A DNA stretch of 64,000 bases from Alphaproteobacteria bacterium (GTDB taxonomy: Bacteria; Pseudomonadota; Alphaproteobacteria; Rs-D84): assembly GCA_017615655.1 (NCBI GenBank), contig JAFZZS010000002.1, positions 195,114 to 259,113 of the forward strand, read 5' to 3'. Made by a program: the position numbers and the translations under genes. The stretch's first letter is position 1. Every line of letters starts with the position of its first letter. Below, one piece after another: positions 13,151 through 42,377 of this stretch. The notes under the pieces were generated by a model that was given only the letters and a program-made list of their open reading frames with translations, ran no database searches and was not told where the DNA came from.

Positions 13151-15298
13151 ATGAAAAAGATTCTTTTTGTCGGCCTGTTGGCTGTGATTCCATGTGTGGC
13201 ATTTACGGCGGAACGTGGTGGATCGCGCGTTGGTATTCGTGCATCTATGTCGTCGATGACGCCTGCGCCCAAGGTGCAAAGTATGCCAAAAGCAAAAGTG
13301 ACATCGAATGCGACATCAACGGTTAGCGCATCGGCACCTGTGGCTTCGCAACCCGAAGTTATTACCACAGAATCAGCAGAAGTTATCACAGAGGTTACAG
13401 AAACAAAATTAACCGTAGAAGAATGTCGTGATGCATACCGTGAATGCATGGATGAATTTTGTTTGCTGGATGAAGCTGAAGGTGGGCGCTGTTCATGTTC
13501 CGATAATATCAAGCAATCTAAGAGTTTGATTCAAACAATTCAATCTATTCAACAAGAGGCGGAATTGCTTTATACTGAAGGTGTTGAAAAAGAACGTCTT
13601 GGGGCAAAAGCAAAGTTTGTTAAATTTGGTGAAAGCGACAAGGCAAAAAAGTCTTCGCGTGTGTCGGGTATAGATTTGGTTGCGTGGATAAATGGCACCA
13701 CAAGTCAGAGTTTGGCGGCTGATGATGACATTGGTGATAATCTTTATGCTATGGCGGCGGATTCGTGTGAATATGTGTTAAGCAGTTGCGATGAAAAGCG
13801 CGCAGAAATGGAAGAAAAACTGTATCAGCGTGAAGTGGTCAAAGATTGCAAGGCTTTTGATGTATATTTGGCAGAACAGAAGAATGCCGCGGAATCGAAT
13901 AAAAGGACGGCACAGGCCGCGGTTCGTTCAGCAAAGTTAGATATGTTAGGAACCACAGAAAAATACAATCGTGGTGAGTGTTTAATTGCATATCGTGCGT
14001 GTATTGCAGACAAAGGTGGCTGTGGTGTTAATTTTGAAAACTGTTTAGATGCGGAATTGTTGGCGCGTCGTTCTAATGCTTGTGAAAACGTGCTTGATCA
14101 ATGTATGTCTGTGAAGACATATGTTTTGGAAGATTGGGAGGCGGAATCTAAAATGGTTCTTGCCGAAGCCGCAATTTACAGTGATAAAAATATGCGTTTA
14201 ACGTGTCTTGCACAAATTCAAGCATGTTTGGAAGACGGGTGCAGTACCTCTACGAATTCGGCGTGTTTGACAAACGTCCGGGTCGCTGCGGGTGTTTGCC
14301 CGATTATAACCGAATGTGAAGCTAAAATCCCGGGAATTCAAAGTGCAATTAATGACAAGTTGGCAGAATTGCGGACGCGTTTTTGTCAAAATGATGTTGA
14401 TAAATGTTTGCAAGATAAATGCGGTGTCAATTTTACTGCGCCAGAATGTGTTGGTAAGAAAACATCAGAAATTGTCGCGATGTGTCCTCAGGCTATGTTC
14501 GCGTCGTGTAAAAATGAAAAGTTTTTTGGTGTAATTGTTCAATCAACATTGTTGCAGATGGACTATCAAATGCTTGAAGGGTGTAAGAATTATTATGCCG
14601 ATGCATTGGGTAAGGTATGTGGAACAGATATGAATTGTTTGCCGGGCAGTACGGTGGTTGAGTCTTTAACAAAAACACCGGTCAGTGTTGGTGATGTTGA
14701 GGACGAAGTTCGTGCAGAAAGTAAGGCCGCGGTTAATGAATTCTTTAAACGTTTTGAAACCGAACAAACGGTTGCGGCATGTAAAAGTTCACAACAGCCT
14801 GTGGGATCTGGACGCAAGAGTTTAAAAGATGCAATGTTTACTTTCACCAAACAGGCGGCAGAAATTGCGGCTCAAAACCGTTATTTGACCGATTTGCGTT
14901 CAAAATTGGCGGAACTTTCGCGCAAGGACGATACGGCCAAGGCGGAACAAAATTGTTATGAACAATATAAAGTTGAAAAGAAGCCTGTAACCGATGATAG
15001 CGGATCTTATACGTATATTCGCAGCGTATCGTTTGAACCGTCATTGCGTAATTGTCATGTGTGTCGTATGCAACGTGTTTGCGAAGTGGGTGGCGAATCT
15101 AAAGCAACTTCCGCATTAAAAGCGGGTGCCGGTGGTTTGGCTGCGGGTGCGTCTGCAGGAACGATGATAAATGCAGGATGGGGAACCGCAATTGGTGCCG
15201 TTGTTGGTGGTGTCGGTGCCGGTGTACTGGGTGCGGTTTCGGGTGGCGAAAAAGAGTTCTGCCAAGAAATAGAATCTTGTGAAGATATAAATATGTAA
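13151..15298 (+). CDS. Large secreted cysteine-rich protein, paralogue 2 (715 aa) of the CMDxFC family
   Basis: Signal peptide, S/T/A/V-rich linker, then the EECRDAYRECMDEFC...CSCS core. A Gly/Ala-rich glycine-zipper-like tract (AGAGGLAAGASAG...GGVGAGVLGAVSGG) lies near the C-terminus, which ends ...CQEIESCEDINM. Confidence 0.8.
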   Translation: MKKILFVGLLAVIPCVAFTAERGGSRVGIRASMSSMTPAPKVQSMPKAKVTSNATSTVSASAPVASQPEVITTESAEVITEVTETKLTVEECRDAYRECMDEFCLLDEAEGGRCSCSDNIKQSKSLIQTIQSIQQEAELLYTEGVEKERLGAKAKFVKFGESDKAKKSSRVSGIDLVAWINGTTSQSLAADDDIGDNLYAMAADSCEYVLSSCDEKRAEMEEKLYQREVVKDCKAFDVYLAEQKNAAESNKRTAQAAVRSAKLDMLGTTEKYNRGECLIAYRACIADKGGCGVNFENCLDAELLARRSNACENVLDQCMSVKTYVLEDWEAESKMVLAEAAIYSDKNMRLTCLAQIQACLEDGCSTSTNSACLTNVRVAAGVCPIITECEAKIPGIQSAINDKLAELRTRFCQNDVDKCLQDKCGVNFTAPECVGKKTSEIVAMCPQAMFASCKNEKFFGVIVQSTLLQMDYQMLEGCKNYYADALGKVCGTDMNCLPGSTVVESLTKTPVSVGDVEDEVRAESKAAVNEFFKRFETEQTVAACKSSQQPVGSGRKSLKDAMFTFTKQAAEIAAQNRYLTDLRSKLAELSRKDDTAKAEQNCYEQYKVEKKPVTDDSGSYTYIRSVSFEPSLRNCHVCRMQRVCEVGGESKATSALKAGAGGLAAGASAGTMINAGWGTAIGAVVGGVGAGVLGAVSGGEKEFCQEIESCEDINM

Positions 15299-15308
15299 GG
15301 TTTTGATA

Positions 15309-17810
15309 ATGAAAAGAATCAAATATATTGCATTGATTACGGCTGTCGTTGCGCCATGTATCGCGTTGGCAGCAACAACCAAGAAACAGTCCGCAGTACA
15401 AAATGGAACTACTGTTCGTACTAAAGTTGCCGCCAAAGGTGTTTATTCTCAGGAATGTTACGATGAATACTACGGATGTATGGACCAGTTCTGTATTTCA
15501 GAAAATATCAATGGCGGTAGCTGCGCATGCAGTAACAAATCTATACAATACGAAGAAGAGTTAAAAGAGATAAATTCAATACTTGCAGAAGCAGATAGAA
15601 TCAAAACAGTAGAAGTTGAAAAGGTAAAACTTGGGGCAAACGCTGATATCGTTTTTAATGGTGAAAGAAAATATGACGAGAAGGGTAATGTTATAAGGGT
15701 ATCATCAAATTCTGATAGACCGAACAAAACTTCAAAACGTGAAGATTTGCTTAAGATGTTCGAAACAAATTTTGATGATGACGATGATGACGACGACGAT
15801 GTTATGAATAAAAGGGGCGCGGCGTTATTTAATGCGGCAAATGCGACATGTTCCAGTCAAGTTGATAGCTCTTGTGCAAAAGATTTAAAGATTTTAACCC
15901 AGATGTATCAGCGTCAAATTGAATCAGATTGTCAGGGGTTTGCAAATAGTATTGCACAACAAAAAGCCGCAGCGCAATCTGCAATGAATAGCGCGGAATC
16001 TGATGTTAGAACAGCATTAAAGGAAAGTTTTGATGCTGCGAACAAATACAACCAGGGCGAATGCATGGTTGAATTTAAAAAATGTATGACTGGTCCAGAT
16101 GCGTGTGGAACTGATTGGATAAATTGTGTTTCAACGATTGCGTCTGAGAATATGCAGAACAAGGCTGCAAAAAGTACGGCGGGAACAAAAACAAAGACAA
16201 CTGTTGCATATGACATAACACCGTCTGTTATGGAACGTTTGGAATCTAAACGAACTATTTGTGAACGCGTTCTGGATCAGTGTATGGCAGTACGTGATAC
16301 GGTTTGGACGGCATTTTTGCGAGAGGCGGCGCCAACACTTAAACTTGCGGAATTGCGCGCTGAATCAGATTTTCGTCAGTCTTGTTTAACAGAGATTACC
16401 AAGTGTATTCATACCGCGTGTAAAGATGATATTGCGGGCAAAGGTGTTGCAACAATGGATTCTTGTTTATCAAGGCCTGATATGGCACGTTCATTCTGCA
16501 AGGTTCAGATTGACCCTTGTGAACGCATGGAGCCATTAATTTGGGGATATGTTACAGACAAGTTAGCGGCGATGCGTGTCGATGCTTGTACCCAGGAAGT
16601 TAAAGATTGCTTTATGGATGATAATCGTTGTGGCAAAGACTTTATGAATTGTATAGGTATGGATTATGAATTTATACGAAATATATGTCCGTTGGATAAA
16701 TTGGTTGTTTGCAAGAAAAACAACAAGAATTTCAGTATGGCGGATATAGATTCTATGATTTCGGGACTGTATTTAAATATTGATAACAAGGCATTAGATA
16801 ATTGTCAAAAGATTGTCGAAGACAAAATGACCGAAGTTTGTGGTTCAACAACAGATTGTAATAAGTTTGCTGCTGATGACATAATGGGTACTAGCAGTTT
16901 ACGCAGCCAAAAAGATAAGAATATATATCGTATAACAGGGATGATATCGTTTGGTGTGTTACCAATTGCGACCTCGGGTGAAGATGTCGGCAAAATAGAT
17001 ATCACTGATTACATGTCAAAGGTGCGTGCAAATGCTGAAACGCAGGATGTGCCGAACAAGGATATGGTATTGGAAAATATCGAAACAGAATTAAAGAATG
17101 TTGCAAATAATATTAACCGTGTAATTGATTTAATTTCATCTGATACGAAGATACAATATTGTGTAACAGGGCGTAATCTTGCTCAAATTGTTGGGGAAAA
17201 AGATGCTCGTACAACCAAGGCACGTTTTCCAAATCTTTTGAATCAAATTAAAATTCAGATTGCAATGGCGGCGTTACGTAAAGCTCAGGATAATTATCAA
17301 GCCAAATATAATGAATATTTAGTTAAGGCGACAAAAGACGCGTCTGCGGATGTTGCGCAATATATGTGTCAGATGTTACCAGTTACAGGTGGTGCACCAG
17401 TTGGTGCGACAGGTGAAGAACAAACACAACTTGCCCCGCCGTATGCGATAAGTTACGAGGTTAGTACCGGATTAAATAACACATTGTTGTCGCAGGGGGG
17501 ACATGGGTCCTCTGCAACAGGAACAAGTGCAAAGGTTGATACTACTGCGGGTGCATCAAAGTTTGCGGGCGTTGTTGATGCGTTTACCGGGCTTGCTGGT
17601 CAAAAGGTAAAATCTGAAACCGGCAATGGAACGCGTGAAATGTGGTCTATATTTAATCGTGATACACGTATATGTCATTTCTGTACATCAACTGTGACAA
17701 AGAGCTGTTCAACTATTACAAAGAAGGGATTCCTTGGCATTGGATCCAAAGCCGAAGCGTCATGTACAGAATCTGATCCAGTTGAAAAGTGTGAAGATAT
17801 TGAAATGTAA
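15309..17810 (+). CDS. Large secreted cysteine-rich protein, paralogue 3 (about 833 aa) of the CMDxFC family
   Basis: Signal peptide, then the QECYDEYYGCMDQFC...CACS core. Poly-Asp run of 9 D followed by DV at 15773-15799. Colinear with P2. Ends ...EKCEDIEM. The ATG at 15309 is preferred over the TTG at 15303. Confidence 0.8.
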   Translation: MKRIKYIALITAVVAPCIALAATTKKQSAVQNGTTVRTKVAAKGVYSQECYDEYYGCMDQFCISENINGGSCACSNKSIQYEEELKEINSILAEADRIKTVEVEKVKLGANADIVFNGERKYDEKGNVIRVSSNSDRPNKTSKREDLLKMFETNFDDDDDDDDDVMNKRGAALFNAANATCSSQVDSSCAKDLKILTQMYQRQIESDCQGFANSIAQQKAAAQSAMNSAESDVRTALKESFDAANKYNQGECMVEFKKCMTGPDACGTDWINCVSTIASENMQNKAAKSTAGTKTKTTVAYDITPSVMERLESKRTICERVLDQCMAVRDTVWTAFLREAAPTLKLAELRAESDFRQSCLTEITKCIHTACKDDIAGKGVATMDSCLSRPDMARSFCKVQIDPCERMEPLIWGYVTDKLAAMRVDACTQEVKDCFMDDNRCGKDFMNCIGMDYEFIRNICPLDKLVVCKKNNKNFSMADIDSMISGLYLNIDNKALDNCQKIVEDKMTEVCGSTTDCNKFAADDIMGTSSLRSQKDKNIYRITGMISFGVLPIATSGEDVGKIDITDYMSKVRANAETQDVPNKDMVLENIETELKNVANNINRVIDLISSDTKIQYCVTGRNLAQIVGEKDARTTKARFPNLLNQIKIQIAMAALRKAQDNYQAKYNEYLVKATKDASADVAQYMCQMLPVTGGAPVGATGEEQTQLAPPYAISYEVSTGLNNTLLSQGGHGSSATGTSAKVDTTAGASKFAGVVDAFTGLAGQKVKSETGNGTREMWSIFNRDTRICHFCTSTVTKSCSTITKKGFLGIGSKAEASCTESDPVEKCEDIEM

Positions 17811-18801: not shown

Positions 18802-18878
18802 GTGCCCATGGCTCAATTGGATAGAGCAATTGCCTTCTAAGCAATAGGTTGCAGGTTCGAGTCCTGCTGGGCACGCCA
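18802..18878 (+). tRNA. tRNA-Arg (anticodon UCU)
   Basis: Manual cloverleaf: acceptor GTGCCCA/TGGGCAC, D-stem GCTC/GAGC, anticodon stem ATTGC/GCAAT with loop CTTCTAA, T-stem GCAGG/CCTGC, and an encoded CCA. Confidence 0.85.
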
Positions 18879-24642: not shown

Positions 24643-25137
24643 ATGTTTGGATTTGGTAAAAAGAAAAAAGCAGCCGCAGAAAATGTAACTAATGAAACCC
24701 AAGAACCTAAAATGCCAAAGGGTATGAAGGAAACTGCTGAACGTATGATGAATGGTCAATTTGATATGAATGATATGTTGGCGCAATTAAAGCAAATCAA
24801 AAAGATGAGCAATTTTAGTGGGTTGCTTAAAATGGTTCCTGGTATGTCAGGTGCCGTTAGTGCGATGAAAGAAAAAATCAAAGATGGCAGTGTGGATGCA
24901 CAAATTAAAATATTAGAGGCGATGACTGTTGCAGAACGTGCTGACCCAGAAAAAATATTTGCAAATGCCAAGACGCGTATTGCAGAAACTGCGGGTGTTA
25001 CAGTTCGTGATGTTGAGCATATTATTAAGCAATATACAAAAATGAAACAGCAGATGGCAATGATTCAGCGTATGGGCGGCATGGAGGCTGTTATGCAACG
25101 TATGCAATCCCAAGGTGGTGTGCCGGGTGCAAAGTAA
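24643..25137 (+). CDS. Stand-alone SRP54/Ffh M-domain-like protein (164 aa)
   Basis: Colinear similarity to the Ffh M domain: FDMNDMLAQLKQIKKMSNFSGLLKMVPGMSG aligns with the Ffh finger-loop region and RIAETAGVTVRDVEHIIKQYTKMKQQM with the C-terminal helices; Met-rich. Strong AAGGAG RBS 6 nt upstream. No NG domain upstream, because uvrA ends at 24599. Confidence 0.65.
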   Translation: MFGFGKKKKAAAENVTNETQEPKMPKGMKETAERMMNGQFDMNDMLAQLKQIKKMSNFSGLLKMVPGMSGAVSAMKEKIKDGSVDAQIKILEAMTVAERADPEKIFANAKTRIAETAGVTVRDVEHIIKQYTKMKQQMAMIQRMGGMEAVMQRMQSQGGVPGAK

Positions 25138-30301: not shown

Positions 30302-30323
30302 GAAATTTTCTAATGAAGCGATA

Positions 30324-30352
30324 AAAAACGGTTGCGTATGCAACCGTTTTTA
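30324..30352. terminator. Bidirectional terminator AAAAACGGTTGC-GTAT-GCAACCGTTTTT between the convergent ygiW-like gene and the motB-like gene
   Basis: Perfect 9-bp stem flanked by A5 and T5. Confidence 0.65.
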
Positions 30353-30365
30353 TCAACTTTAACCT

Positions 30366-31481
30366 CTATTTATTTGTTAACTGTAACTCAATGCGCCGGT
30401 TCTTTTGCAGGCTGACTGCATCGGTTCCAAGTTCAATTGGGTGCAAATCACCAAAGCCACTGGGGACCAAGCGTCTTGCCGATACACCATCGCGAATCAA
30501 TTCGTTCATGACCGCGCGTGCGCGCAAAATTGATAACTGCATATTATCAGCATAGGCACGATTTCCTGGGACAACAGGCTTTTTGTCAGTATGCCCATCA
30601 ATGCGAATAATCCAATTTATATCGGTTGGGATTTTTTCCTCTAGTCCTTTGATTACATTTGATATAAGGCGAACCTGATTCTTTCCTTCGGTTGATAATT
30701 TGTATGATCCTGTTTGGAACAGAATATCACTGGGGACAATGAATCTGTCGCCATCGGCCTGAACCGATGATGTATTACCAAGTGCGATTTTTATTGCTCT
30801 ATAAAATTCCGATTGATATTCTTCCATGGCTTTTAATTCGGCAACTTTGTCCGCCAGGGCTTTGTTAAGACGCGTTGACATTTCAATATATCTAACTTCC
30901 TGTTCCTTGGCAGATTTTTCTGCGATGGAAAGCGCATAAGTTAATTTGTCCAGTTCTTCTTGGTATTCTGCATCATATTCTTCAAGCTTCTGGGCTTGTA
31001 GTCGCATGGTTTCTTGCAGTTCAGCCTGTTTCTTGGCCAGTCCATCAGCCAGTTCACGTTGCGCGTTTTGTGAGGCATTTAACTGAGCTACCAGGTTCAG
31101 CATTTGTTGCTTGGTTGCCTCGTCTTGGGCCTGAAGGTCATTTACTTTGTTTTCATATGCGGTAATTAAATCTATGATAGAAAGGTCTTTTGATTCTAAA
31201 TCAGTTTGTGCGGATTCCAAACGGGCACGTGCCTGAATCAACAGACGCATTGCTTCCTGTTCGTCTGCGGTCATTTGGCGGATTTTTTCGCTTTGTTCTG
31301 CATTAGTTTGCTGTAATTCAGCGATAGTTTTCATTCCAGTTCTTTTGTTAAAGACACTTGTGGTTGTCCATAAAAACACGAATACAATCAACAAAAATAT
31401 CAATATGATGACCAGGTTCGAAAACAAATCGACGAACGCCGGCCATGTGTTTGTTCTATCACGAAATCTAAAGTTAAACAT
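30366..31481 (-). CDS. MotB/OmpA-like stator subunit with a ~200-aa coiled coil
   Basis: N-terminal TM/plug region (WPAFVDLFSNLVIILIFLLIVF), a long heptad-rich coiled coil, and a C-terminal OmpA-like peptidoglycan-binding domain (RIDGHTD...ILRARAV...RRIEL). Start taken at ATG 31481. Confidence 0.75.
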   Translation of the reverse strand: MFNFRFRDRTNTWPAFVDLFSNLVIILIFLLIVFVFLWTTTSVFNKRTGMKTIAELQQTNAEQSEKIRQMTADEQEAMRLLIQARARLESAQTDLESKDLSIIDLITAYENKVNDLQAQDEATKQQMLNLVAQLNASQNAQRELADGLAKKQAELQETMRLQAQKLEEYDAEYQEELDKLTYALSIAEKSAKEQEVRYIEMSTRLNKALADKVAELKAMEEYQSEFYRAIKIALGNTSSVQADGDRFIVPSDILFQTGSYKLSTEGKNQVRLISNVIKGLEEKIPTDINWIIRIDGHTDKKPVVPGNRAYADNMQLSILRARAVMNELIRDGVSARRLVPSGFGDLHPIELGTDAVSLQKNRRIELQLTNK

Positions 31482-31513
31482 TGTTTTCCTCTCTCGTTTT
31501 CTTATGCAGACAC

Positions 31514-32293
31514 CTAATTTTCTTCTTCGCAAACAGTATGAACGGTGTCATCAATGCGTTTAATAGAATTGACTATTTTGTCTAAACTGGACTCGATTCT
31601 TGGCCACATTCCTATTTCTGGGTGAGCAACATTGGTGCGCTTGGATAGGAAGTCTTCTAGTTCACGTATAATAGATCCCTGGGCCATATTTAGTTGTAAT
31701 GATAAAAATCCGACAACCAAGCTGCCCCCAAGGCCAAGTAACGAACTTGTAAATGCGGTAGCCATTCCACCAAGCGGACGGGTTAAACCAGACTGCATGG
31801 TTTCAAGAACCGTTTCATCATTAAAGTTAAGATTTCCAATTAATTCAGCAAAGCCACCAACCGTCAAAATCAATCCCCAAAATGTTCCCAATAGCCCCAA
31901 GAATACCAATGTGTTAGTAATATATCGGACGGATTCTCTATCATCTTCGAATCTAACAAGAACCGCATCTAATACACTGCGTAGACCACTTTCGGTCAAT
32001 TGATTCGGACGCGTCCGTAACATTAATGCAACGGAACTTAAAATACGGGGTTTAGGCATGTAACGGCGGGACCCGCCCGTATACGCATTTATCCAGCGAT
32101 GTTCCGGCAAAAGAGCAAACATTTTGATAAAACAAAGGATTATGCCGAATAGCGTTGTTCCAATAATTATGCCGTTAAGGTAAATATTTGCGGTCGCAAT
32201 TTCAAAAAAGGTGCGATAAAAGAATACTATTACGCACAGAATTATTGCCGTAAAAAGCGCCATTCTATTAAGGTTTCCGTGAAAAGTGCTCAT
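31514..32293 (-). CDS. MotA/TolQ/ExbB-family proton-channel subunit (259 aa, 4 TM)
   Basis: Two N-terminal TM helices, a ~70-aa cytoplasmic loop, then the family signature TFWGLILTVGGF...GGMATAFTSSLLGLGGSLVVGF. Lies immediately upstream of the motB-like gene. Confidence 0.75.
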   Translation of the reverse strand: MSTFHGNLNRMALFTAIILCVIVFFYRTFFEIATANIYLNGIIIGTTLFGIILCFIKMFALLPEHRWINAYTGGSRRYMPKPRILSSVALMLRTRPNQLTESGLRSVLDAVLVRFEDDRESVRYITNTLVFLGLLGTFWGLILTVGGFAELIGNLNFNDETVLETMQSGLTRPLGGMATAFTSSLLGLGGSLVVGFLSLQLNMAQGSIIRELEDFLSKRTNVAHPEIGMWPRIESSLDKIVNSIKRIDDTVHTVCEEEN

Positions 32294-32454
32294 ATGTCTT
32301 CCCCCATTACAATTGCATATTAGTAAAAAATTAAAACCCGTGTCAACAGGGATTATTATAAAATACTTGATTTTTTATAAAAAATTGCAATAATTGCGTC
32401 TGTTCCTGCTGTAGTCAATGGTGGTTACGGCTGATATAAACCAAAGGAAATAAA

Positions 32455-33780: not shown

Positions 33781-34869
33781 ATGGTTAAAGAAAAATGCCC
33801 GAAAGTTTCTGTATTGGTACCATGCTATAACTCTGAGCGTTATATTGACGAATGCATCACCAGCATTATAAATCAATCTTTAAAAGATATAGAAGTTATC
33901 TGTATAAATGACGGATCGACTGATAATACCCTGGATATAATCAAAAAATATGCCGATTTAGATAGTCGGGTTTTGGTTATTGATAAACCAAACGAAGGCT
34001 ATGGTAAGACCATGAATCGTGGTCTGAACATTGCAAGTGGCGAGTATATCGCGATTGTTGAGTGCGATGATTGGATTGAAAAAAATGCACTGGAATTACT
34101 TTATACAACCGCAAAACAAAATGATGCCGATATGGTAAAAGCGGATTTTGTTTTGTTTGATAATGATACTCGTGTTGAAACGCCATCAAGGTGTTTCGGG
34201 GTCAGCCCAAAAATGTATGGCAAGGTATTTTGCCCGATGACAGATAATTCGGATGTCGCATGGACCGGTCACCCAAGTATTTGGACATGTTTATATCGAA
34301 ATGATATGATTCAGAAATATAAAATACGTTTTGCAGAAACACCTGGTGCGTCGTTTCAGGATATGGGATTTAAACCTAAAACTTTTATAGCCGCACGTTC
34401 ATTTGTATACATACCAAATGTTATACTGCATTATCGCAAACACGCCAATAATTCCGATAAGACAAATAGCAAGATTTTTGAAGTTTGCGAAGTTCATAAT
34501 GATGCGGACAGATGGTTACAGCAAAGCGGGTTGGAATCAAAACGTGCGTGGGATATACTGAATGTCTCACGATTTTCCAATTATGTTTGGAATTTGCGTC
34601 GATTAAGTGGTGATGCCAAGGCGCAATTTACACAAAGATTTCAATCTGATTTTGACAAGATTTTATCCGCAGGAAAACTTAATAGGAATTTCTTCAACGA
34701 TAAATTATGGTTAAAAGTGTGTATAATGGTATATCCAAATAATCCTTGGTGGCGAATTTTGCGTACACTGACCACTTTAATTTGGCCGATATACCGCAAT
34801 AAAGTAGTGTTTGGACACAAAGTATATTACTTGTTCGGGGGGATTGTTTTGAGAAAGGTAAAAGTGTAA
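33781..34869 (+). CDS. Family 2 glycosyltransferase
   Basis: GT-A fold: VSVLVPCYNSERYIDECITSI...ICINDGSTDNT...VECDDW (DxD-like). Confidence 0.8.
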   Translation: MVKEKCPKVSVLVPCYNSERYIDECITSIINQSLKDIEVICINDGSTDNTLDIIKKYADLDSRVLVIDKPNEGYGKTMNRGLNIASGEYIAIVECDDWIEKNALELLYTTAKQNDADMVKADFVLFDNDTRVETPSRCFGVSPKMYGKVFCPMTDNSDVAWTGHPSIWTCLYRNDMIQKYKIRFAETPGASFQDMGFKPKTFIAARSFVYIPNVILHYRKHANNSDKTNSKIFEVCEVHNDADRWLQQSGLESKRAWDILNVSRFSNYVWNLRRLSGDAKAQFTQRFQSDFDKILSAGKLNRNFFNDKLWLKVCIMVYPNNPWWRILRTLTTLIWPIYRNKVVFGHKVYYLFGGIVLRKVKV

Positions 34870-34885
34870 AGGTTGGTATGATAAA

Positions 34886-35719
34886 ATGAACAAGAAAATC
34901 GCAGTTATTGGTGCCAGTGCTTATTTGGCCGAAAATATATCAAATATATCAAAAAATGTTTTGTTGTTTTCACGCGCAGATGATTGGGCTAAGTCTGGTA
35001 ATGCTGATGATTTTGATTGGGTTATAAATTTTTCTATTCAGCCAGAATTTCAGAAAAAAATTTTACCGGAATCTGAATTGATTGATGTTAATATCGCCAA
35101 GATAATTCAAGGCATGAAGACAAAATTCGTAATGATTTCGTCAAGAAAAGTGTATGGGACTTGTAAAACATTAAATATTTTCTATGAAACCGACGAGTGT
35201 CATCCAGCCGATTTTTATGCGAAAAACAAATTAGCAACCGAGCATAAAGTACTAGATTTATTGCCCGAACAATCACTGATTGTGCGTGTATCAAATATTA
35301 TTGATTTTCCATCTAGGCGTCCTGAACAACGTGTGTTTATGGGATGGATTAGGGATTCTATGCGCGAAAAAGGTGAATTGAATATCACTGAAAATCCAGA
35401 TGTAAAAAAAGATTTTATAACACGAGATTATTTTCAACGCGCATTGCGTGATTTAATGAACAAAGACGAATTGGGAATATTTAATGTCGGTGCCGGATTT
35501 GCGGTCAGTCTGCGTGAATTGTTACCTAGGATAGTTGGACGTGGTAACTGTGTGTTTAGTGGCAAGAACAAGGAACTAGCAGATCAATTTATATTAAATA
35601 CTGACAAATTGCATATGGTAATGAAAGCTTTTTCTGTGGACGAATTATATACAAAGTGTGATAATATTCGCAAGGTGATGTTTGATAATATGGGGGCGCA
35701 TGATAATGGCAAAAATTAA
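34886..35719 (+). CDS. NAD(P)-binding sugar-nucleotide epimerase/reductase-like protein (RmlD-like)
   Basis: N-terminal Rossmann motif (IAVIGASAYLA); SDR-like architecture; located inside the glycan locus. Confidence 0.5.
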   Translation: MNKKIAVIGASAYLAENISNISKNVLLFSRADDWAKSGNADDFDWVINFSIQPEFQKKILPESELIDVNIAKIIQGMKTKFVMISSRKVYGTCKTLNIFYETDECHPADFYAKNKLATEHKVLDLLPEQSLIVRVSNIIDFPSRRPEQRVFMGWIRDSMREKGELNITENPDVKKDFITRDYFQRALRDLMNKDELGIFNVGAGFAVSLRELLPRIVGRGNCVFSGKNKELADQFILNTDKLHMVMKAFSVDELYTKCDNIRKVMFDNMGAHDNGKN

Positions 35720-36893
35720 ACACCTTGTTGTTGGCGCCGGAATTTCTGGGGCGACATTGGCGGAAAGAATTGCGAATGTTCTGCATGAACCAGTTGTCGT
35801 TATTGATTCCAGAAATCATATCGGTGGAAATTGTTTTGACTATGTTGATAAAACCGGAATCCGTATTCACAAATATGGTCCGCATATTTTTCATACCAAT
35901 AATCAGGATGTTTGGGATTATTTATCCCAATTTACGTCATGGCATCCGTTTTTCCTGCGTGTACGTGCATATATAGATGGCAAAACTGTTCCTTTTTCGT
36001 TTAATTTGAATAGTATTGCAGAATCTTTTCCACCAACCATGGCACAGCGGTTAACAGAAAAATTGATAGAAAAGTTAGGTTATGGACATAGGATTTCTAT
36101 TTTGCAATTGCGTGAATCTAAAGATGCGGATTTGGCGTTTTTGGCAGATTTTATTTATAACAAAGGTTTTTTAAATTATTATAAAAAACAATGGGGTTGT
36201 ACCCCCGAGGAACTTGATGCATCGGTTGCGGAACGGGTTCCAATTAGTATTTCTACATCGGATGATTATTTTATTGATAGGTATCAAGGTATACCGTCAA
36301 ATGGATGGACACCGATGATTAGGAAAATGCTGGATAATCCATTAATAACAGTTCGTTTGAATACCCCATTTGATAAATCAATGGAATATGAGAACTTATA
36401 TTACACGGGTCCAATTGATGAGTTTTTTAATTTCGAATTCGGCGAATTACCATACAGAAGTTTGACATTTGATATTCGTACATATAATCAGGAATATTTT
36501 CAAAATAATGTTGTGGTTAGTTATCCTAATAATTACGATTTTACGCGTATTTGTGAACATAAGTACTTTCTGGATGATAAATCTGATAAGACAGTTGTAT
36601 CTTTTGAGTATCCATCGGCGTTTGTAAACGGAAAAAATGAACGCTATTATCCGATACCACGTCCGGAAAATGCACGGTTATACGAAAAATATTTGGTTAA
36701 GGCACAAACAGAGTGTGGGAATACGTTCTTCTTTGGTCGGTTGGGGGATTACAAGTATTATAACATTGATATGGCAGTTGCCAGGGCATTAAATTTATTT
36801 GACGAGATAAAAAAACGTGAGGGTGGGAATGTCCAACAAACCAAAAGTTTCGGTTGTTGTGCCAATTTATGGTGGCGAAAAATATTTAAGTAA
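35706..36893 (+). CDS. glf: UDP-galactopyranose mutase
   Basis: FAD-binding VVGAGISGATLA...IDSRNHIGGNCFD...KYGPHIFHTNN, colinear with Glf. Confidence 0.9.
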   Translation: MAKIKHLVVGAGISGATLAERIANVLHEPVVVIDSRNHIGGNCFDYVDKTGIRIHKYGPHIFHTNNQDVWDYLSQFTSWHPFFLRVRAYIDGKTVPFSFNLNSIAESFPPTMAQRLTEKLIEKLGYGHRISILQLRESKDADLAFLADFIYNKGFLNYYKKQWGCTPEELDASVAERVPISISTSDDYFIDRYQGIPSNGWTPMIRKMLDNPLITVRLNTPFDKSMEYENLYYTGPIDEFFNFEFGELPYRSLTFDIRTYNQEYFQNNVVVSYPNNYDFTRICEHKYFLDDKSDKTVVSFEYPSAFVNGKNERYYPIPRPENARLYEKYLVKAQTECGNTFFFGRLGDYKYYNIDMAVARALNLFDEIKKREGGNVQQTKSFGCCANLWWRKIFK

Positions 36894-37971
36894 GTGTGTT
36901 GATTCTATATTGGATCAGACCCTTGCCAATATAGAAGTAATTTTAGTTGATGATGGGTCGCCTGATAAATGTCCAGAAATTATTGATAAATATGCCGAAA
37001 GTGATAGTCGTGTTGTCGCGCTGCACAAAGAAAATGGTGGCTACGGTTCCGCAGTCAATATGGGTATTGCGCATGCCAGGGGTGAATATATTGGTATTGT
37101 AGAAGGTGATGATTGGATTGAACCGACAATGTATAAGAAATTATATACAAATGCGGTTAAAAATGATTCGGATGTCGTTAAGTGTGGATTCTATAAATAT
37201 AATTCTTTGGCCCAAAAAGCAAAAAATATAAATAGAAAATGGCATGTTTCATACATGAATTTATTTGATGCCCCAAGTGGTACTTTTACAATTGCTGATT
37301 GGCCAAAGATAATGATGTGGCACGCGAGTGTTTGGGCGGCACTGTATAAAGCAGATTTTGTTAAAAATATAAAGATGCCAGAAACCAAATCTGCGGCATA
37401 CCAAGATTTTCCGTTTACTTGTGAAGTTATGGCGCGTGCAGCACGAATATCAGTTGTAAAAGAATATCTGGTTCATTATCGTATGGAACAAGGGCAGGGA
37501 AATTCCGCAGTTTGCAGAAATAAACGTGGCATTATGATGGCAACGCAATCAATCGCAGGTATAGATATTTTGTGTAAATACAATGTGTTAGATTTATGCA
37601 AAGAAGAAATATACTATCATGCGTATATTGCATCACGCGGATTTTTTGACAGGATAATGTGGCAATATAAATCTGAATTTTTTGATGAACTTTACAGGTT
37701 ATTGGAACCATTACGTAAAGATAAAAAATTTAAATGGCAGTATTTTAATTCTGCGGACAGGTATTTCTGTAACCATGTGATAATGAATGATTTAATTGGT
37801 GCGGTGCGTGTATGGTATCCACTGACGATTGCGTCATTACGTAAAGTGTTGATATCGGTACGTATGCCGCAAAAGGATTATTTTTCTGGTTGGCGAATTC
37901 AGTTGCTGGGTATCCAAATTGGGTCGCATCTAGATTATTCTGTACCCGCACTTATTAGAATAAAAATGTAG
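36829..37971 (+). CDS. Family 2 glycosyltransferase
   Basis: VSVVVPIYGGEKYLSKCVDSI...ILVDDGSPDKC...VEGDDW. Overlaps the glf 3' end by 65 nt if ATG 36829 is the start. Confidence 0.8.
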   Translation: MSNKPKVSVVVPIYGGEKYLSKCVDSILDQTLANIEVILVDDGSPDKCPEIIDKYAESDSRVVALHKENGGYGSAVNMGIAHARGEYIGIVEGDDWIEPTMYKKLYTNAVKNDSDVVKCGFYKYNSLAQKAKNINRKWHVSYMNLFDAPSGTFTIADWPKIMMWHASVWAALYKADFVKNIKMPETKSAAYQDFPFTCEVMARAARISVVKEYLVHYRMEQGQGNSAVCRNKRGIMMATQSIAGIDILCKYNVLDLCKEEIYYHAYIASRGFFDRIMWQYKSEFFDELYRLLEPLRKDKKFKWQYFNSADRYFCNHVIMNDLIGAVRVWYPLTIASLRKVLISVRMPQKDYFSGWRIQLLGIQIGSHLDYSVPALIRIKM

Positions 37972-38043
37972 CATTATAGAAAAAAATATGATAGTTTTCC
38001 TTGTGTGCGATTATAATGTTTTTATTAACCAAGGAAAACGTTT

Positions 38044-38949
38044 ATGCCGAAAAAACAAAAACCAATAAATATATTGTTTGCTGCAACATCGGATTATTTA
38101 CCTTATGCCATTGTTACGGCACGTTCCGCGATTGAACGTGCAAATGGTCGGCCAGTAAATATACATTTTATGTATGCGGATATTGTTAAACCAATTCCCG
38201 ATCAGGTAAGGGAATGTTGCTTTGAAATGGCGCGACGCAGTTTGGATGATGTAGATGCGACAATAAATTTCTATGATATTTCTGATAAAATGTTTTTGTT
38301 AGAAGGACAGAATGTCGGCATGTGGGGCCAGGCGATTTCTATGACGCATTATTTTTATCTGTTGTCGCCACTGGTGTTACCAAAAGATGTGGACAAAGTA
38401 ATCTATCTTGATACAGATATGATAGTTAACTGTGATTTAGGTGTCGCCTATGATACCAAGATGAGTTCTCATTTGATTGCGATGGGTGCTCCGCGTGGGG
38501 TTGAAGAAATGGGTGATGATGTTTCAAATTCGGGATTTTCGGTTTTGAATTTGAAAATGTGGCGTGCTGAAAATACGTTAGATACATTATTGGCGTTTGG
38601 GCGTGCATTACCACGTGCGCGTTTTTGTGACCAATACTTGTTGCATGAATATTTCAAGAAAAATCATGTTGATAGAATGATGTTTTTGGCACCCGAATAC
38701 AATTTGTTTCCGCAGTGTGCGATGCATGTTGCATTACAAGATATTAAGATACTGCATTTTACTGGTTACGGTGCATTTAAACCATGGCAAGATGTTTGTG
38801 GACGTCAGCGTGGTGCGCATTTGTGGTGGCGCAGTGCACGCCATACAGAGTTTTATGAAAAATTCATTATGGATATGGTTGCGGTGGGGTATAAAAGCAA
38901 ATCACAACATCATTCATTTTGGTGGCATTTAGTAAGAATGAAATTCTAA
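38044..38949 (+). CDS. Family 8 glycosyltransferase (LPS alpha-1,3-galactosyl/glucosyltransferase-like)
   Basis: NILFAATSDYLPY... and the YLDTDMIV DxD motif typical of GT8. Confidence 0.75.
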   Translation: MPKKQKPINILFAATSDYLPYAIVTARSAIERANGRPVNIHFMYADIVKPIPDQVRECCFEMARRSLDDVDATINFYDISDKMFLLEGQNVGMWGQAISMTHYFYLLSPLVLPKDVDKVIYLDTDMIVNCDLGVAYDTKMSSHLIAMGAPRGVEEMGDDVSNSGFSVLNLKMWRAENTLDTLLAFGRALPRARFCDQYLLHEYFKKNHVDRMMFLAPEYNLFPQCAMHVALQDIKILHFTGYGAFKPWQDVCGRQRGAHLWWRSARHTEFYEKFIMDMVAVGYKSKSQHHSFWWHLVRMKF

Positions 38950-38966
38950 CTATGGGATAAAAAGCA

Positions 38967-39910
38967 ATGCGTTTTTTTAATTTTAAACGAAAAACAGAAA
39001 AATCAAGTGCGGTTGTATCTGACCCAATTCGTATCATTGCCGAAAATGTTTTTACGCATGATGGTTGTGATGAATTTGAATATGAATTCTTGAAACACGT
39101 TTTTCAAAACAAACGCGTTTTGGCAAGTTATGATAACAAGGTGGCGTGGCTGGTTTGTATAACGGCATTGGCGTTGCATGATGATATTGCTGCGGCAAGA
39201 AGTCTTTTCTTGATGTATTATAAACGTTTCGGAATGAATGGTGTTGAATCTTATGAACCAATTTGCCGAATTGCAAAATCACTAGGACTGGGAAATGATT
39301 TAACTAATAAAACCATCGCGGTATATGACAAGGTTAAAAAAATTCGTTCAAAAAAGCGTTTTGAAAATATTATTAAAAAGGCAAAATCTGTTGCAATAGT
39401 CGGGCGTTCACCGGCATTGATTGGTAAAAAATTGGGGCATGAAATTGTGATGCACATGATGTCGTTATTCGGTTTAATATGGCGGATGTTTCCGGCAAAT
39501 ATTCGGTTGATTTTGGCGTAAAAAACGATGTGATGGTTATAAATTGTTGGAATAAAACTGACAATAACGCATTTTATTTATACAAAGATTTTCGGTTATA
39601 TGGTGCATTTTCGGGTGTTATGGATTCTGTTTATAATGATGAGTGTAAAAATGCAGATTTCCTTGATTTTGGGCTAAAGGCGGAATGTTGTCGTGAATCT
39701 GGATTGGTTGATCCGACAAGTGGGGCACTTGCAATAATGTGGGTTAAGAAAATATTGGGTAATTTAGACAAAGTGGACATATATGGCTTTGCGTTCCAGG
39801 ATGAAAATATGAATCTTGGGCATTATGATGGTAAATATGTCATAAATGATGACATTCACAATATGCGAGCAGAAGTAGAATACTTGCGGCAGATTGCAAA
39901 CAAAGATTAA
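38967..39910 (+). pseudogene. GT29-type (animal-like) sialyltransferase homologue interrupted by a 2-bp insertion
   Basis: Frame 1 gives the sialylmotif-L start VAIVGRSPALIGKKLGHEI. Frame 2 (from 39449) continues DAHDVVIRFN, then motif S PTSGALAIMWVKKILGNLDKVDIYGFAF, motif III HYDG and motif VS HNMRAE. Removing TG at 39447-39448 (TTG[TG]ATG) restores a single ~314-aa ORF. Confidence 0.65.
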
Positions 39911-39927
39911 CTGGTTGGTAATTTTAA

Positions 39928-40467
39928 ATGAAGCGGCTAATTTCTAAATTTTCATTGTTGTCACGAATAATATATGGTCAGTCCAAACGTGAACTGCAAC
40001 GCGATATTTACACCCGGTCAATTCAAAAACAGGTTAAATCATGTGGTCTTGGGTTGCGGGTAAATGCGCCGTGTTCTATGACACATAACACAATTTTAGG
40101 TGACCATTGTAATTTTAATGGGATGCGAATAACTGGTTCTGGAATGTGCAAAATTGGAAATTATTTTCATTTTGGTGATGGGTGTCGTATATTGACCGAA
40201 AATCATAATTACGAAGGGGATGAAATACCATACGATTCCACATACATTTCCAAAGATGTAATTATTGGTGATTTTGTGTGGTTGGGTATAAATGTAATAA
40301 TTTTGCCCGGAACCGAGATAGGCGATGGTGCCATTATTCAGGCGGGGGCGGTTGTTCACGGGAAAATACCACCATATGCAATTGTTGGTGGTAATCCTGC
40401 GGTTGTGTTCAAATACCGTGATAAAGAACATTTTGAAAAACTAAGAAAATCAAAGAAATTTCATTAA
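39928..40467 (+). CDS. Hexapeptide-repeat sugar O-acetyltransferase (NeuD/WbbJ/LacA-like)
   Basis: Left-handed beta-helix hexapeptide repeats (IGDFVWLGINVIILPGTEIGDGAIIQAGAVV). Confidence 0.75.
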   Translation: MKRLISKFSLLSRIIYGQSKRELQRDIYTRSIQKQVKSCGLGLRVNAPCSMTHNTILGDHCNFNGMRITGSGMCKIGNYFHFGDGCRILTENHNYEGDEIPYDSTYISKDVIIGDFVWLGINVIILPGTEIGDGAIIQAGAVVHGKIPPYAIVGGNPAVVFKYRDKEHFEKLRKSKKFH

Positions 40468-40482
40468 ACAAAAGGATGAAAA

Positions 40483-41364
40483 ATGACAAGACCAGTAGTC
40501 GTTGCCGAAGTCGGCTGTAATCACAAAGGGGATATGGAAATTGCCCACCGTATGATTAAACTTTTGGGTTGTTTTAAAACATTAAATCCAGATGCAGCGA
40601 TTGATATTGTTAAGTTTCAAAAGCGGACTAACAAGGAACTTTTGACCCCCGAAGAATATAATGCGCCGCATCCACATCCGGAAAATAGTTATGGTAAAAC
40701 ATATGGCGAGCATCGTGAATTTTTGGAATTTAGTGCCGATCAACATAAACTGTTGAAGCAATGGTGCGAAGAAGAAGGGTTAACATATTCTACATCAACG
40801 TGGGATTTAACCGCGGCCAAAGAAATTGTGGCGTTGCATCCGTCATTAATCAAGGTTCCATCAGCAAGTAATTTAGACTTTGATATGTTGGGTTACTTAC
40901 GGGACAACTATGATGGCGAAGTGCATTTGTCTTTTGGTATGACGACCAAAGAAGAAGAAAAAAAGATTGTGAATTTCTTTAAAGAGAAAAACCGTGCCAA
41001 AGATTTGGTTCTTTACGCATGCACGTCGGGTTATCCGGTACCGTTTGAAGATATTTGCCTTAATGAAATAACACGTTTGCGTGAAACATTCGGTAATGAT
41101 GTCAAGGCAATCGGTTTTTCGGGACATCATTTGGGTATTGCGGTTGATATTGCTGCATTGGCATTGGGTGCAACATATTTTGAACGCCATTTCACACTTG
41201 ATCGCACATGGAAAGGAACCGATCATGCGGCGTCGTTGGAACCAACAGGTATGCTAAAGTTAGCACGTGATTTGCGTAATGTGTCCAAGGCATTAACATC
41301 AAAATCCGAAGATATTTTGGATATTGAAAAGGTTCAACGTAAAAAACTGAAACGGAAAATCTGA
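40483..41364 (+). CDS. neuB: Nonulosonic (sialic/legionaminic/pseudaminic) acid synthase, NeuB family, lacking the C-terminal SAF/antifreeze-like domain
   Basis: TIM-barrel NeuB signature (VVAEVGCNHKGDMEIA...IKFQKRTN...GFSGHHLGIAVDIAALALGATYFERHFTLDR). Only 293 aa. Confidence 0.8.
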   Translation: MTRPVVVAEVGCNHKGDMEIAHRMIKLLGCFKTLNPDAAIDIVKFQKRTNKELLTPEEYNAPHPHPENSYGKTYGEHREFLEFSADQHKLLKQWCEEEGLTYSTSTWDLTAAKEIVALHPSLIKVPSASNLDFDMLGYLRDNYDGEVHLSFGMTTKEEEKKIVNFFKEKNRAKDLVLYACTSGYPVPFEDICLNEITRLRETFGNDVKAIGFSGHHLGIAVDIAALALGATYFERHFTLDRTWKGTDHAASLEPTGMLKLARDLRNVSKALTSKSEDILDIEKVQRKKLKRKI

Positions 41365-42377
41365 TGTCTAATATTGCGTTTATTCCAGTACGAGGTGGGT
41401 CAAAATCAATACCACTGAAAAATATCAAATTGCTGGCGGGGCGGCCATTGGTTTATTGGACCGCGGCGGCGGCGAATAATGCAAGGTGTGTCGATCGCGT
41501 AATAATCGCAACCGACAGTGATGAAATTCGTGCCGCAGTTCGCACATTTGCCAATTTGAAAAAAGTGGAACTGTATAATCGTGATGCCGAAAATGCGACT
41601 GATACTGCATCAACTGAAAGTGTTATGTTGGAATATATCAATAAATCAAATTTGAAAAATGATGATATGTTTTTCTTGATTCAGGCGACATCACCATTGT
41701 TGAAATCAGAACATATTGATGAAATGTTCGCAAAAATGCATCGTGATGGCGCGGATTCGGCGTTGTCGTGTGTGCGGAATAAACGTTTTTTCTGGGGCGC
41801 TGATGGAAAATCAATGAACTATGATTATTGTGCACGTCCACGTCGCCAGGATTTTGAAGGTATGCTGATGGAAAATGGGGCGTGTTATATAAATTCTGTG
41901 GGAAATATTCTGTGTAATAAAAATCGGTTATCAGGAAAAATATCGGTTTATGAAATGCCAGAATATACCGCAACAGAAATTGATGAACCTGATGACTTTT
42001 TGATAATTGAAAAGTTAATGGCAAAGTATAACAAACCGCAATTACCCACCGGTAAGACATTTTGTTTTGATATAGATGGGGTGTTGGGGCTGTTTGCAGA
42101 TATCAAAGATATGGCAGGCGATTATGCAAATAATGTGCCAAATATCGAAATGATAGAAATCTGTAATAAATTATATGATGCAGGAAACAAAATTGTTCTG
42201 CATACCGCACGGGGCAGTGGCAGCGGAATTGATTGGTCTGATAAAACCAAGGCGCAGTTGGCGCGATGGGGGGTGCGTTATCATGCATTGACCTTTGGCA
42301 AGCCCGCTGCCGATTTTTATATTGATGATAAAATGTTATCATTGGAACGCTTGAGAATGATGACAAAGTCGCGATAG
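41364..42377 (+). CDS. neuA: CMP-nonulosonate (acylneuraminate) cytidylyltransferase with a C-terminal HAD-like phosphatase domain
   Basis: N-terminal IAFIPVRGGSKSIPLKNIKLLAGRPLVYW (CMP-NeuAc/KDO synthetase fold). C-terminal FCFDIDGVLG...GKP..DFYIDD HAD motifs I-IV. Confidence 0.8.
   Translation: MSNIAFIPVRGGSKSIPLKNIKLLAGRPLVYWTAAAANNARCVDRVIIATDSDEIRAAVRTFANLKKVELYNRDAENATDTASTESVMLEYINKSNLKNDDMFFLIQATSPLLKSEHIDEMFAKMHRDGADSALSCVRNKRFFWGADGKSMNYDYCARPRRQDFEGMLMENGACYINSVGNILCNKNRLSGKISVYEMPEYTATEIDEPDDFLIIEKLMAKYNKPQLPTGKTFCFDIDGVLGLFADIKDMAGDYANNVPNIEMIEICNKLYDAGNKIVLHTARGSGSGIDWSDKTKAQLARWGVRYHALTFGKPAADFYIDDKMLSLERLRMMTKSR

Follow-up and report, generated by a model that had tools for sequence, protein, structure and literature searches.

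The window analysed here, a 64-kb stretch of contig JAFZZS010000002.1 from an alphaproteobacterial genome, carries a two-gene minus-strand operon that encodes a channel-type subunit, A, and a peptidoglycan-binding subunit, B. Our analysis indicates that A and B probably form an ion-driven complex of the inner membrane that is anchored to peptidoglycan, is non-flagellar, belongs to the MotAB/ExbBD/TolQR/ZorAB (5:2) superfamily, and has a housekeeping role in Alphaproteobacteria. This reading is carried by the anatomy and homology of the two proteins, the residues conserved in them, the conservation of the pair, and its coexistence with separate MotA and TolQ proteins on the same replicon. A sequence-only reading of the window had described a MotA/MotB-like pair at this site, with an A subunit of 259 amino acids (aa) and four transmembrane (TM) helices and a B subunit of 372 aa. 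Both open reading frames (ORFs) and the four hydrophobic segments of A are present as described, and B was corrected to 371 aa. All coordinates below are window positions unless a locus label is given. The two genes and the parts of their products are as follows.

31514-32293, minus strand: gene A, an ORF for a 259-aa, four-TM channel subunit of the MotA/ExbB/TolQ/ZorA type, in a short-tailed form.
31697-31921, minus strand: TM3-TM4 core of A, residues 125-199, with TM3 (LGLLGTFWGLILTVGG), a periplasmic loop (residues 151-180), and TM4 (GMATAFTSSLLGLGGSL).
31517-31696, minus strand: cytoplasmic tail of A, residues 200-259, helical, 59 aa.
30366-31481, minus strand: gene B, encoding a 371-aa MotB/ZorB-like subunit that matches an NCBI entry exactly.
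31368-31439, minus strand: TM helix of B, residues ~15-38, with the motif WPAFVD and its invariant Asp18.
30777-31349, minus strand: helical/coiled-coil spacer of B, residues ~45-235.
30396-30722, minus strand: OmpA/MotB-type peptidoglycan-binding domain of B, residues ~254-362.

Protein A is identical to NCBI MBO4480229.1, which is annotated as a hypothetical protein, and its stop codon lies at 31514-31516. The four hydrophobic segments comprise residues 12-30, 42-60, 125-152, and 181-199, and the charge distribution fits an N-in, four-TM topology. The AlphaFold2 (AF2) model is helical throughout, with a mean predicted local distance difference test (pLDDT) score of 79.9, and its helices 171-219 and 225-258, together with the tail lengths seen across loci, define the cytoplasmic tail. 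The segment formed by TM3 and TM4 is the presumed ion-conducting core. Within it, LGLLGT of TM3 is invariant or nearly so in the family, the TM4 motif is found in 75 of 81 family members, and the periplasmic loop between the two helices is conserved. Six threonine and serine residues (T137, T144, T179, T182, S183, and S184) are invariant among 48 relatives. The core aligns with the ZorA TM core of PDB 8vvn and also with the GLFGTVWG...GIAEAL segment of ExbB and TolQ.

By profile, A lies nearest to ZorA, next to ExbB and TolQ, and is least similar to MotA. The PADLOC ZorA1 model matched the TM3-TM4 core with an E-value of 1.1e-13, and the NCBIfam ZorA subfamilies matched the core at 4e-5 (ZorA_2) to 2.5e-3, the ZorA_2 score being 22.9 bits against a cut-off of 100. 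When a profile built from 15 A relatives was compared with the PDB, ZorA of 8vvn ranked first. Foldseek with the A model likewise returned ZorA 8vvn, TolQ, and ExbB as the best matches, with TM-scores of 0.44-0.54, and flagellar MotA and PomA were absent from the top 50. None of the NCBIfam MotA, TolQ, or ExbB models matched A at E<=0.1; the MotB, MotS, and MotD models of the same library did match B. The cytoplasmic loop between TM2 and TM3 comprises residues 61-124, and these 64 aa are too short for the torque-generating domain of flagellar stators. A is therefore grouped with the compact non-flagellar forms rather than with the torque-domain stators.

The open frame that holds gene B runs from 30366 to 31532 on the minus strand. 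We set the start at the ATG at 31481, because homologues and the Shine-Dalgarno sequence GAGAGAGGA place it there, and the resulting protein is identical to NCBI MBO4480228.1 (371 aa, annotated as "OmpA family protein", locus tags J5742_). The order expected for this subunit, with a TM helix, a long coiled coil, and an OmpA anchor, was borne out along the whole chain. Asp18 in the TM helix is the presumed ion-binding residue, and the motif W-P-x-[FYW]-V-D around it occurs in 76 of 78 family B proteins. The spacer that follows is defined by the AF2 model, heptad periodicity, composition, and indels. It contains 0 Pro and 2 Gly across 190 residues, its heptad-period hydrophobic power is 2x that of shuffles (z 2.4; reached by 25/1000 shuffles), and indels among B relatives are mostly 7, 14, 21, or 35 (heptad) or 11 or 18 (hendecad) residues long. 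The AF2 monomer of B shows helices at 13-116, 123-221, and 225-234 with a break at 117-122, at low pLDDT. By the conservation profile the sequence of the spacer is variable, except for a conserved helix at residues ~195-235 just ahead of the OmpA domain.

The C-terminal domain of B matches Pfam OmpA with an E-value of 5.7e-15, and its GHTD, LSxxRA, and NRRIE motifs are invariant among relatives. The best PDB profile matches of this domain are MotS, YiaD, MotB, and PomB (E 1e-11 to 1e-9), and Foldseek of B matches PomB, MotS, and MotB. OmpA is the sole significant Pfam domain in B, and the ExbD domain was not found; B thus differs from the Tol and Exb B subunits, for which the absence of an OmpA domain had rightly been noted. 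The PADLOC ZorB3 model matched B at 3.7e-23. The strongest match came from NCBIfam NF006543 (PRK09039), which aligned residues 11-371 of B with positions 14-349 of a 350-position model at an E-value of 2.1e-67. The score of 228.4 bits lies under the curated cut-off of 305, so that the name given by NCBI's Prokaryotic Genome Annotation Pipeline (PGAP) stays "OmpA family protein", and B is a divergent homologue rather than an equivalog.

The B family is thus already modelled and named by NCBI, as the PRK09039 "peptidoglycan-binding protein". In the Sinorhizobium meliloti Ak57 genome (3.72-Mb record), the pair is annotated as "MotA/TolQ/ExbB proton channel family protein" and "peptidoglycan-binding protein". 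The window A is 39% identical to the S. meliloti A (E 2e-40), and the window B is 29% identical to the S. meliloti B over its full length (E 6e-44), both of which support orthology. Some relatives are named "flagellar motor protein MotA" and "chemotaxis protein MotB" in public annotation, and these labels are probably wrong. Full-text literature searches returned no study of function or structure for a PRK09039-type pair, and the pair is unmentioned in the S. meliloti Rgs/Tol-Pal paper (PMC7327166), the Rhodobacter CenKR paper, and the Brucella envelope review.

A genome scan with two search patterns taken from A, [VI]FLGLLGTF and T[VI]GGFA[EDN][LI]I, confirmed at least 583 family loci, and an exhaustive profile search, with hits clustered at 50% identity, gave 384 clusters at E<=1e-30 and 1194 at E<=1e-10. 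Because the two patterns were used for searching, their conservation across loci is partly circular; the TM4 motif of A, the Asp motif of B, and the adjacency of A and B provide evidence independent of the search. For the neighbourhood analysis 80 loci were fetched, 77 of which hold both genes. B directly follows A in 74 of these 77, with the B start lying between -500 and +150 nt from the end of A. The hosts belong to Rhodobacterales, Hyphomicrobiales, Rhodospirillales, Sphingomonadales, Kordiimonadales, and SAR116, along with a few gammaproteobacteria, such as the isolate Dokdonella ginsengisoli. In the genome scan, the nearest relatives among genomes were rumen and gut metagenome-assembled genomes (MAGs), several of which are named Candidatus Enterousia. 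The pair was also seen on contigs of MAGs labelled Patescibacteria, Variovorax paradoxus, and Mycobacteriaceae (L017, L039, and L079), and the neighbourhood in L039 is of Rhodobacteraceae type. These three cases are probably binning contamination rather than a wider distribution.

The pair shares single replicons with genuine MotA and TolQ proteins. In one record of Sinorhizobium sp. C101, a MotA ortholog lies at 0.57 Mb, TolQ at 2.80 Mb, and the family A at 2.84 Mb, and in Shinella sp. PSBB067 the corresponding positions on the same replicon are 4.50, 2.50, and 2.53 Mb. The separate MotA proteins of C101 and PSBB067 show 42-44% identity to E. coli MotA. Likewise, the annotated tolQ of S. meliloti Ak57 is located 38 kb from the pair. 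Since the pair coexists with a true MotA and a true TolQ on one replicon, the family is neither flagellar nor Tol. At family level, as judged from C101, PSBB067, and Ak57, the pair was found neither as the sole flagellar motAB nor in synteny of the tolQ-tolR/tolA kind. The claim that this architecture stands apart from the known stators accordingly held against flagellar and Tol/Exb systems; it did not hold as a peculiarity of the window, because the same architecture is the norm in at least 583 loci. The plasmid collection PLSDB lists CP090106.1, NZ_CP104131.1, NZ_CP104127.1, NZ_CP104135.1, and NZ_CP069303.1, which are records of 3.5-4.6 Mb, one titled "plasmid pSymB". Since tolQ, motA, and genes for ribosomal proteins and purine metabolism are found on them, these records are evidently misfiled chromosomes.

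A helical B spacer of at least 124 aa defines the family. It reaches this length in 76/76 measured proteins, with a median of 174 and a maximum of 855 aa in Rhodobacteraceae. The longest Rhodobacteraceae B homologues (800-1091 aa; L057:11058-14333, and L022, L062, L063, L072, and L078) consist almost entirely of coiled coil, with matches to crescentin, tropomyosin, and similar rod models, followed by OmpA, and if extended, such a coil would measure ~100 nm, far beyond the width of the periplasm. The cytoplasmic end of A varies as well. Most family members have a helical tail of ~90-190 aa (87-192 in those sampled) with a conserved end motif ...EIRLLARTIAALAEE, and the total length of A is typically 350-420 aa versus 259 here. 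In the gut clade, which includes the window, the tail is shortened to ~55-60 aa. Two close homologues of A from horse-faeces and ruminal MAGs (L006:9992-11179 and L007:10001-11149) bear an extra C-terminal domain of ~190 aa that has no Pfam match. As this domain is unrelated to the helical tail found elsewhere, A seems to be modular at its cytoplasmic end.

By analogy with the structures of related motors (PMC11890865; bioRxiv 10.1101/2023.12.18.572097), the TM helices of two B subunits, each with its Asp18, would sit within a ring of A. Asp18 would there face the conserved ring of threonine and serine residues offered by TM3 and TM4, and proton or Na+ flow at the A-B interface could make A rotate, or cycle through conformations, relative to B. 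The B subunits would be held to the wall by a dimeric OmpA/MotB-type domain through a long coiled-coil tether instead of a short linker. The output would most likely act in the cell envelope, or signal the state of the envelope to the cytoplasm. In most members the conserved A tail would be available for such cytoplasmic signalling, of which only 59 aa are present here.

A more far-reaching version of this mechanism is also conceivable, and we put it forward tentatively as a minority view. The family may be a separate housekeeping sister of Zorya and a further class of 5:2 motors, in which the coil would serve as a mechanical sensor or torsion element. The geometry of wall and membrane, for instance at growth zones or sites of damage, would then gate the rotation of A and send a signal through the A tail, and Zorya might be a derived, effector-coupled offshoot of a motor that monitors the envelope in this way.

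Several observations weigh against an ion-driven, wall-anchored motor. The Pfam MotA_ExbB model scores A at 18.1 bits, under its gathering score of 22.9, so that of the two profile searches suggested for the pair, the OmpA search passed and the MotA_ExbB search fell short. Alignment of the A profile with single E. coli sequences by hhalign was weak, giving E-values of 3.6e-4 for ExbB and 2e-3 for TolQ over two core helices only, and for MotA 7.8e-3 at a probability of 5% with the TM helices out of register. The homology of A to the ZorA/TolQ/ExbB superfamily is nevertheless clear despite the sub-threshold Pfam score, because the ZorA1, ZorA_2, and structural matches agree. A second difficulty concerns the tether. 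The spread of 124-855 aa makes a perpendicular, fixed-length rod across a fixed gap unlikely, and the coil cannot serve simply as a ruler for the width of the periplasm. In close relatives the first arm of the spacer is fixed at 80 or 87 aa while the second varies from 99 to 159 aa, which argues against a symmetric hairpin. The spacer lengths agree better with a folded bundle, or with a tether that is flexible or lies laterally, than with a fixed rod. Moreover, the A tail is nearly lost in the gut lineage, so that an output mediated by the tail is not universal, and no partner protein conserved across the family was found among the neighbours in the 80 loci. Lastly, in the parts of the S. meliloti transposon-sequencing (Tn-seq) supplements covered by our search, smc03994 and smc03995 are present and smc03992/smc03993, the tags deduced for the pair, are absent. 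If these tags are right, their absence from the essential-gene lists in that material argues, as a weak check, against an essential role.

Some of these observations would suit a static device. The pair could be a wall-membrane tether, for instance one that spaces or organises the inner membrane relative to peptidoglycan, or could build a periplasmic scaffold or filaments, with A acting as an anchor or a gated leak channel without rotary output. No other part of the pair is as elaborate or as variable as the coil, the 1091-aa Rhodobacteraceae B matches crescentin- and tropomyosin-like rod models, the A tail can be lost, and no downstream partner is conserved. However, the family, although divergent, keeps Asp18, the Thr/Ser ring, and LGLLGT with little or no variation, which would not be expected in a pure scaffold, and A and B are adjacent in nearly every locus that has both. 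We therefore consider a static scaffold unlikely and favour the ion-driven complex.

The best profile matches of the pair (ZorA1, ZorB3, and ZorA_2) and the best PDB match of A (ZorA of 8vvn) raise the question of a Zorya-like anti-phage sensor that works without effectors or in trans; motors of the ZorAB type sense the disturbance that a phage causes in the envelope. Such a role is quite improbable for this pair. The NCBIfam ZorA score lies far under its cut-off, and genes resembling ZorC, ZorD, ZorE, ZorF, or ZorG are absent near the pair, which is flanked by ribosomal-protein and BOF-family genes. In addition, the A tail is short beside that of ZorA, and the stable housekeeping synteny across the class is unlike that of a variable defence island.

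An energiser of the Tol or Ton type, in which A would be a paralog of TolQ/ExbB and the helical part of B would stand in for TolA or TonB and pass force on to the outer envelope, appears very improbable, even though A matches the folds of TolQ and ExbB as well as that of ZorA (TM-scores 0.44-0.53) and its GLLGTFWG resembles GLFGTVWG of ExbB/TolQ. The long helical periplasmic segment of B is reminiscent of TolA domain II. However, B carries an OmpA/MotB domain in place of the ExbD/TolR domain, no NCBIfam TolQ or ExbB model reached E<=0.1 with A, and Ak57 has its annotated tolQ elsewhere, 38 kb away. The genes tolA, tolB, pal, ybgC, and tonB were seen neither in the window nor among the conserved neighbours in the 80 loci. 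An ordinary flagellar MotAB stator, to which the MotA/MotB names of some relatives and the TM Asp and MotB-type anchor of B would point, is extremely improbable, given the absence of a MotA model match, the 5% hhalign probability, the lack of MotA or PomA among the top 50 structures, the 64-aa loop, the separate MotA on the same replicon in C101 and PSBB067, and the absence of flagellar genes from the survey of the 64-kb window.

Outside the gut clade the pair has a conserved position, in the order tkt-gap-pgk ... thiE-(Sel1/RgsF)-efp-suhB-A-B, and an ABC exporter is often convergent downstream of it. In S. meliloti, rgsF (SMc03995), which encodes a Sel1-repeat protein, lies two genes upstream of the pair in the arrangement thiE2-rgsF-suhB-A-B (L084 = CP090106.1 3076235-3095092; 6430-7575). 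An RgsF homologue is found 1.6-4.2 kb upstream of the pair in 11/80 loci, with efp and suhB between them. RgsF, a periplasmic protein, is essential, belongs to the machinery for polar growth and septation, and co-purifies with RgsA alongside TolQ and TolR (PMC7327166). The pair is absent from the RgsA co-purification tables searched in that study, and the relation between RgsF and the pair is only a positional lead, given by synteny. In about 10 Rhodospirillales loci (e.g. L016:8870-9976 and L066:8851-9903), the gene directly before A, on the same strand, codes for a secreted protein that is rich in proline and has a C-terminal OmpA domain; it may be a third component in Rhodospirillales.

The window operon is bracketed by regulatory signals, as had been proposed from an rpsF-divergent promoter region on one side and a bidirectional terminator on the other. 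The signals are as follows.

32317-32346, minus strand: promoter-like site TTGACA-18 nt-TAATAT, 24 nt upstream of the A ATG, a putative promoter by its match to the consensus.
31482-31513, minus strand: 32-nt spacer between A and B, which holds the Shine-Dalgarno sequence of B at 31495-31487, 5 nt before the B ATG.
30323-30351, both strands: bidirectional intrinsic terminator, composed of an A-run, ACGGTTGC-GTAT-GCAACCGT, and a T-run.

The promoter-like site sits within a 161-bp region divergent from rpsF, and GGGGGAAG (32305-32298) is the likely ribosome-binding site of A. A and B are probably co-transcribed, because the spacer between them contains no terminator-like site. The terminator is located between the B stop codon and a convergent BOF/YgiW-like gene; its RNA fold has a free energy of -20.3 kcal/mol with a z-score of -5.84, and none of 200 shuffles was equally stable. 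No RNA element was detected in or beside the operon by the Rfam and tRNA scans.

On one side the pair is accompanied by dus, a RodZ-like gene, uvrA, rlmE, rnhA, tkt, a YgjP-like gene, and a BOF-family gene, and on the other by rpsF-rpsR-rplI and then a polysaccharide/sialic-acid-type cluster. The GC content of the pair is the same as that of its surroundings, and its rpsF-divergent placement is specific to the gut "Enterousia" clade. The genes of the window were surveyed by Pfam for ~30 ORFs and by N-terminal sequence for the rest, and in this survey no flagellar, Tol (tolA, tolB, pal, or ybgC), Ton (tonB), or gliding genes were seen, in agreement with the sequence-only reading.

Other features of the window lie outside the operon. 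The surface-polysaccharide cluster, at 33781-42377 on the plus strand directly after rplI, encodes two GT2 proteins, an epimerase, a UDP-galactopyranose mutase, a GT8 protein, a hexapeptide acyltransferase, a NeuB-type synthase, and a CMP-sugar cytidylyltransferase. The only RNA gene detected in the window by Rfam and ARAGORN is a tRNA-Arg(TCT) at 18802-18878 on the plus strand. The plus-strand ORF at 24643-25137 encodes 164 aa and consists of the signal-peptide-binding (M) domain of SRP54/Ffh alone (Pfam SRP_SPB, E 9.5e-23). As this ORF begins 44 nt after uvrA, there is no room upstream for the NG GTPase domain, and the product may be a stand-alone M-domain protein or a remnant.

The window also encodes secreted, very Cys-rich paralogs of 326-835 aa with 26-37 Cys each, at 10375-12738, 13151-15298, and 15303-17810 on the plus strand and at 60341-61321 and 62005-63978 on the minus strand; the two that were scanned have no Pfam match. 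The first three have orthologs, each with exactly 37 Cys, in three relatives (L001, L004, and L008), where they are located 1.4-2.7 kb past the 3' end of B; in the window a block of ~12 kb intervenes. Such proteins had been put forward as speculative partners of the pair. They are real and lie near B in these three close relatives, but the neighbourhoods conserved around the pair elsewhere in Alphaproteobacteria showed no counterparts, and we rejected them as unlikely general partners.

Five classes of 5:2 motors are well studied, serving flagellar rotation, Ton-dependent uptake, Tol-dependent envelope maintenance, gliding and type IX secretion, and Zorya defence. The family described here would add a further large and evolutionarily stable class, which model Alphaproteobacteria such as Sinorhizobium possess in addition to MotAB and TolQR. 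A coil of 124-855 aa between the ion-binding helix and the wall anchor raises the question of how a motor could act with its axle on a long leash. Because the family is present in genetically tractable species, its role is directly testable, and the flagellar MotA and chemotaxis MotB annotations of its members should be corrected.

Comparing the pair with named systems, the closest correspondence is to the PRK09039 pair, for example that of S. meliloti, which lies downstream of suhB (smc03994). Both have the same two-gene layout, the same order in B (a TM helix with WPxFVD, a long helical spacer, a pre-OmpA helix, and OmpA), and the same A core, with LGLLGTF in TM3 and AF(T/S)(S/A)S in TM4. 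The window pair differs in that B scores below the family cut-off, A is short, and the rpsF-divergent synteny is clade-specific.

By profile, the closest characterised relative of A is ZorA of the Zorya system (8vvn and 8qyd). ZorA and A share G-x-x-GTF-x-GL in TM3 without a preceding Pro and AF-x-TS in TM4, and in ZorB, as in B, the TM Asp is N-terminal and the peptidoglycan-binding domain C-terminal. The ZorAB complex is a 5:2 motor that binds peptidoglycan (bioRxiv 10.1101/2023.12.18.572097; PMC11890865), and its ZorA tail is ~700 Å long (bioRxiv 10.1101/2023.12.18.572097). It had been argued that Zorya differs in carrying its long tail on the A subunit. This contrast is correct only in part, as A is nearest to ZorA by profile and most members, like ZorA, have a helical cytoplasmic tail. 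The tails differ in extent, with several hundred residues in ZorA compared with 59 aa here and 87-192 aa in the sampled family. Furthermore, in family B proteins at least 124 aa of helix are inserted between TM helix and anchor, whereas the ZorB3 model has 215 positions in total, and the pair lacks the effectors ZorC-G beside it and consists of core genes in stable synteny, unlike those of a defence island.

Flagellar MotAB and PomAB have in common with the pair a four-TM A and a B with a TM Asp and an OmpA-like domain. However, the large torque-generating domain in the cytoplasm is missing from A, and B shows a ~190-aa coiled coil in the place of the plug and short linker of MotB. The cytoplasmic torque interface between TM2 and TM3 is diagnostic of flagellar stators (PMC12505986). 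TolQ and ExbB share with A a compact fold and a GLxGTxWG motif, and both systems act in the envelope without a flagellum. They differ from the pair in that B carries an OmpA rather than a TolR/ExbD fold, a separate TolA or TonB transducer is missing, and the tol-pal synteny is absent. GldLM and PorLM offer an analogy only. GldM, the "B-like" subunit, bears a long dimeric periplasmic extension. The distal part of GldM contacts machinery of the outer membrane, B instead terminates in a domain that binds peptidoglycan, and no GldL or GldM Pfam domain was found in A or B at E<=0.1. From these comparisons, we rate the pair as a separate system of the 5:2 type that resembles ZorAB but has a housekeeping role, and whose B subunit is tethered by a coiled coil, an architecture that the window shares with its relatives.

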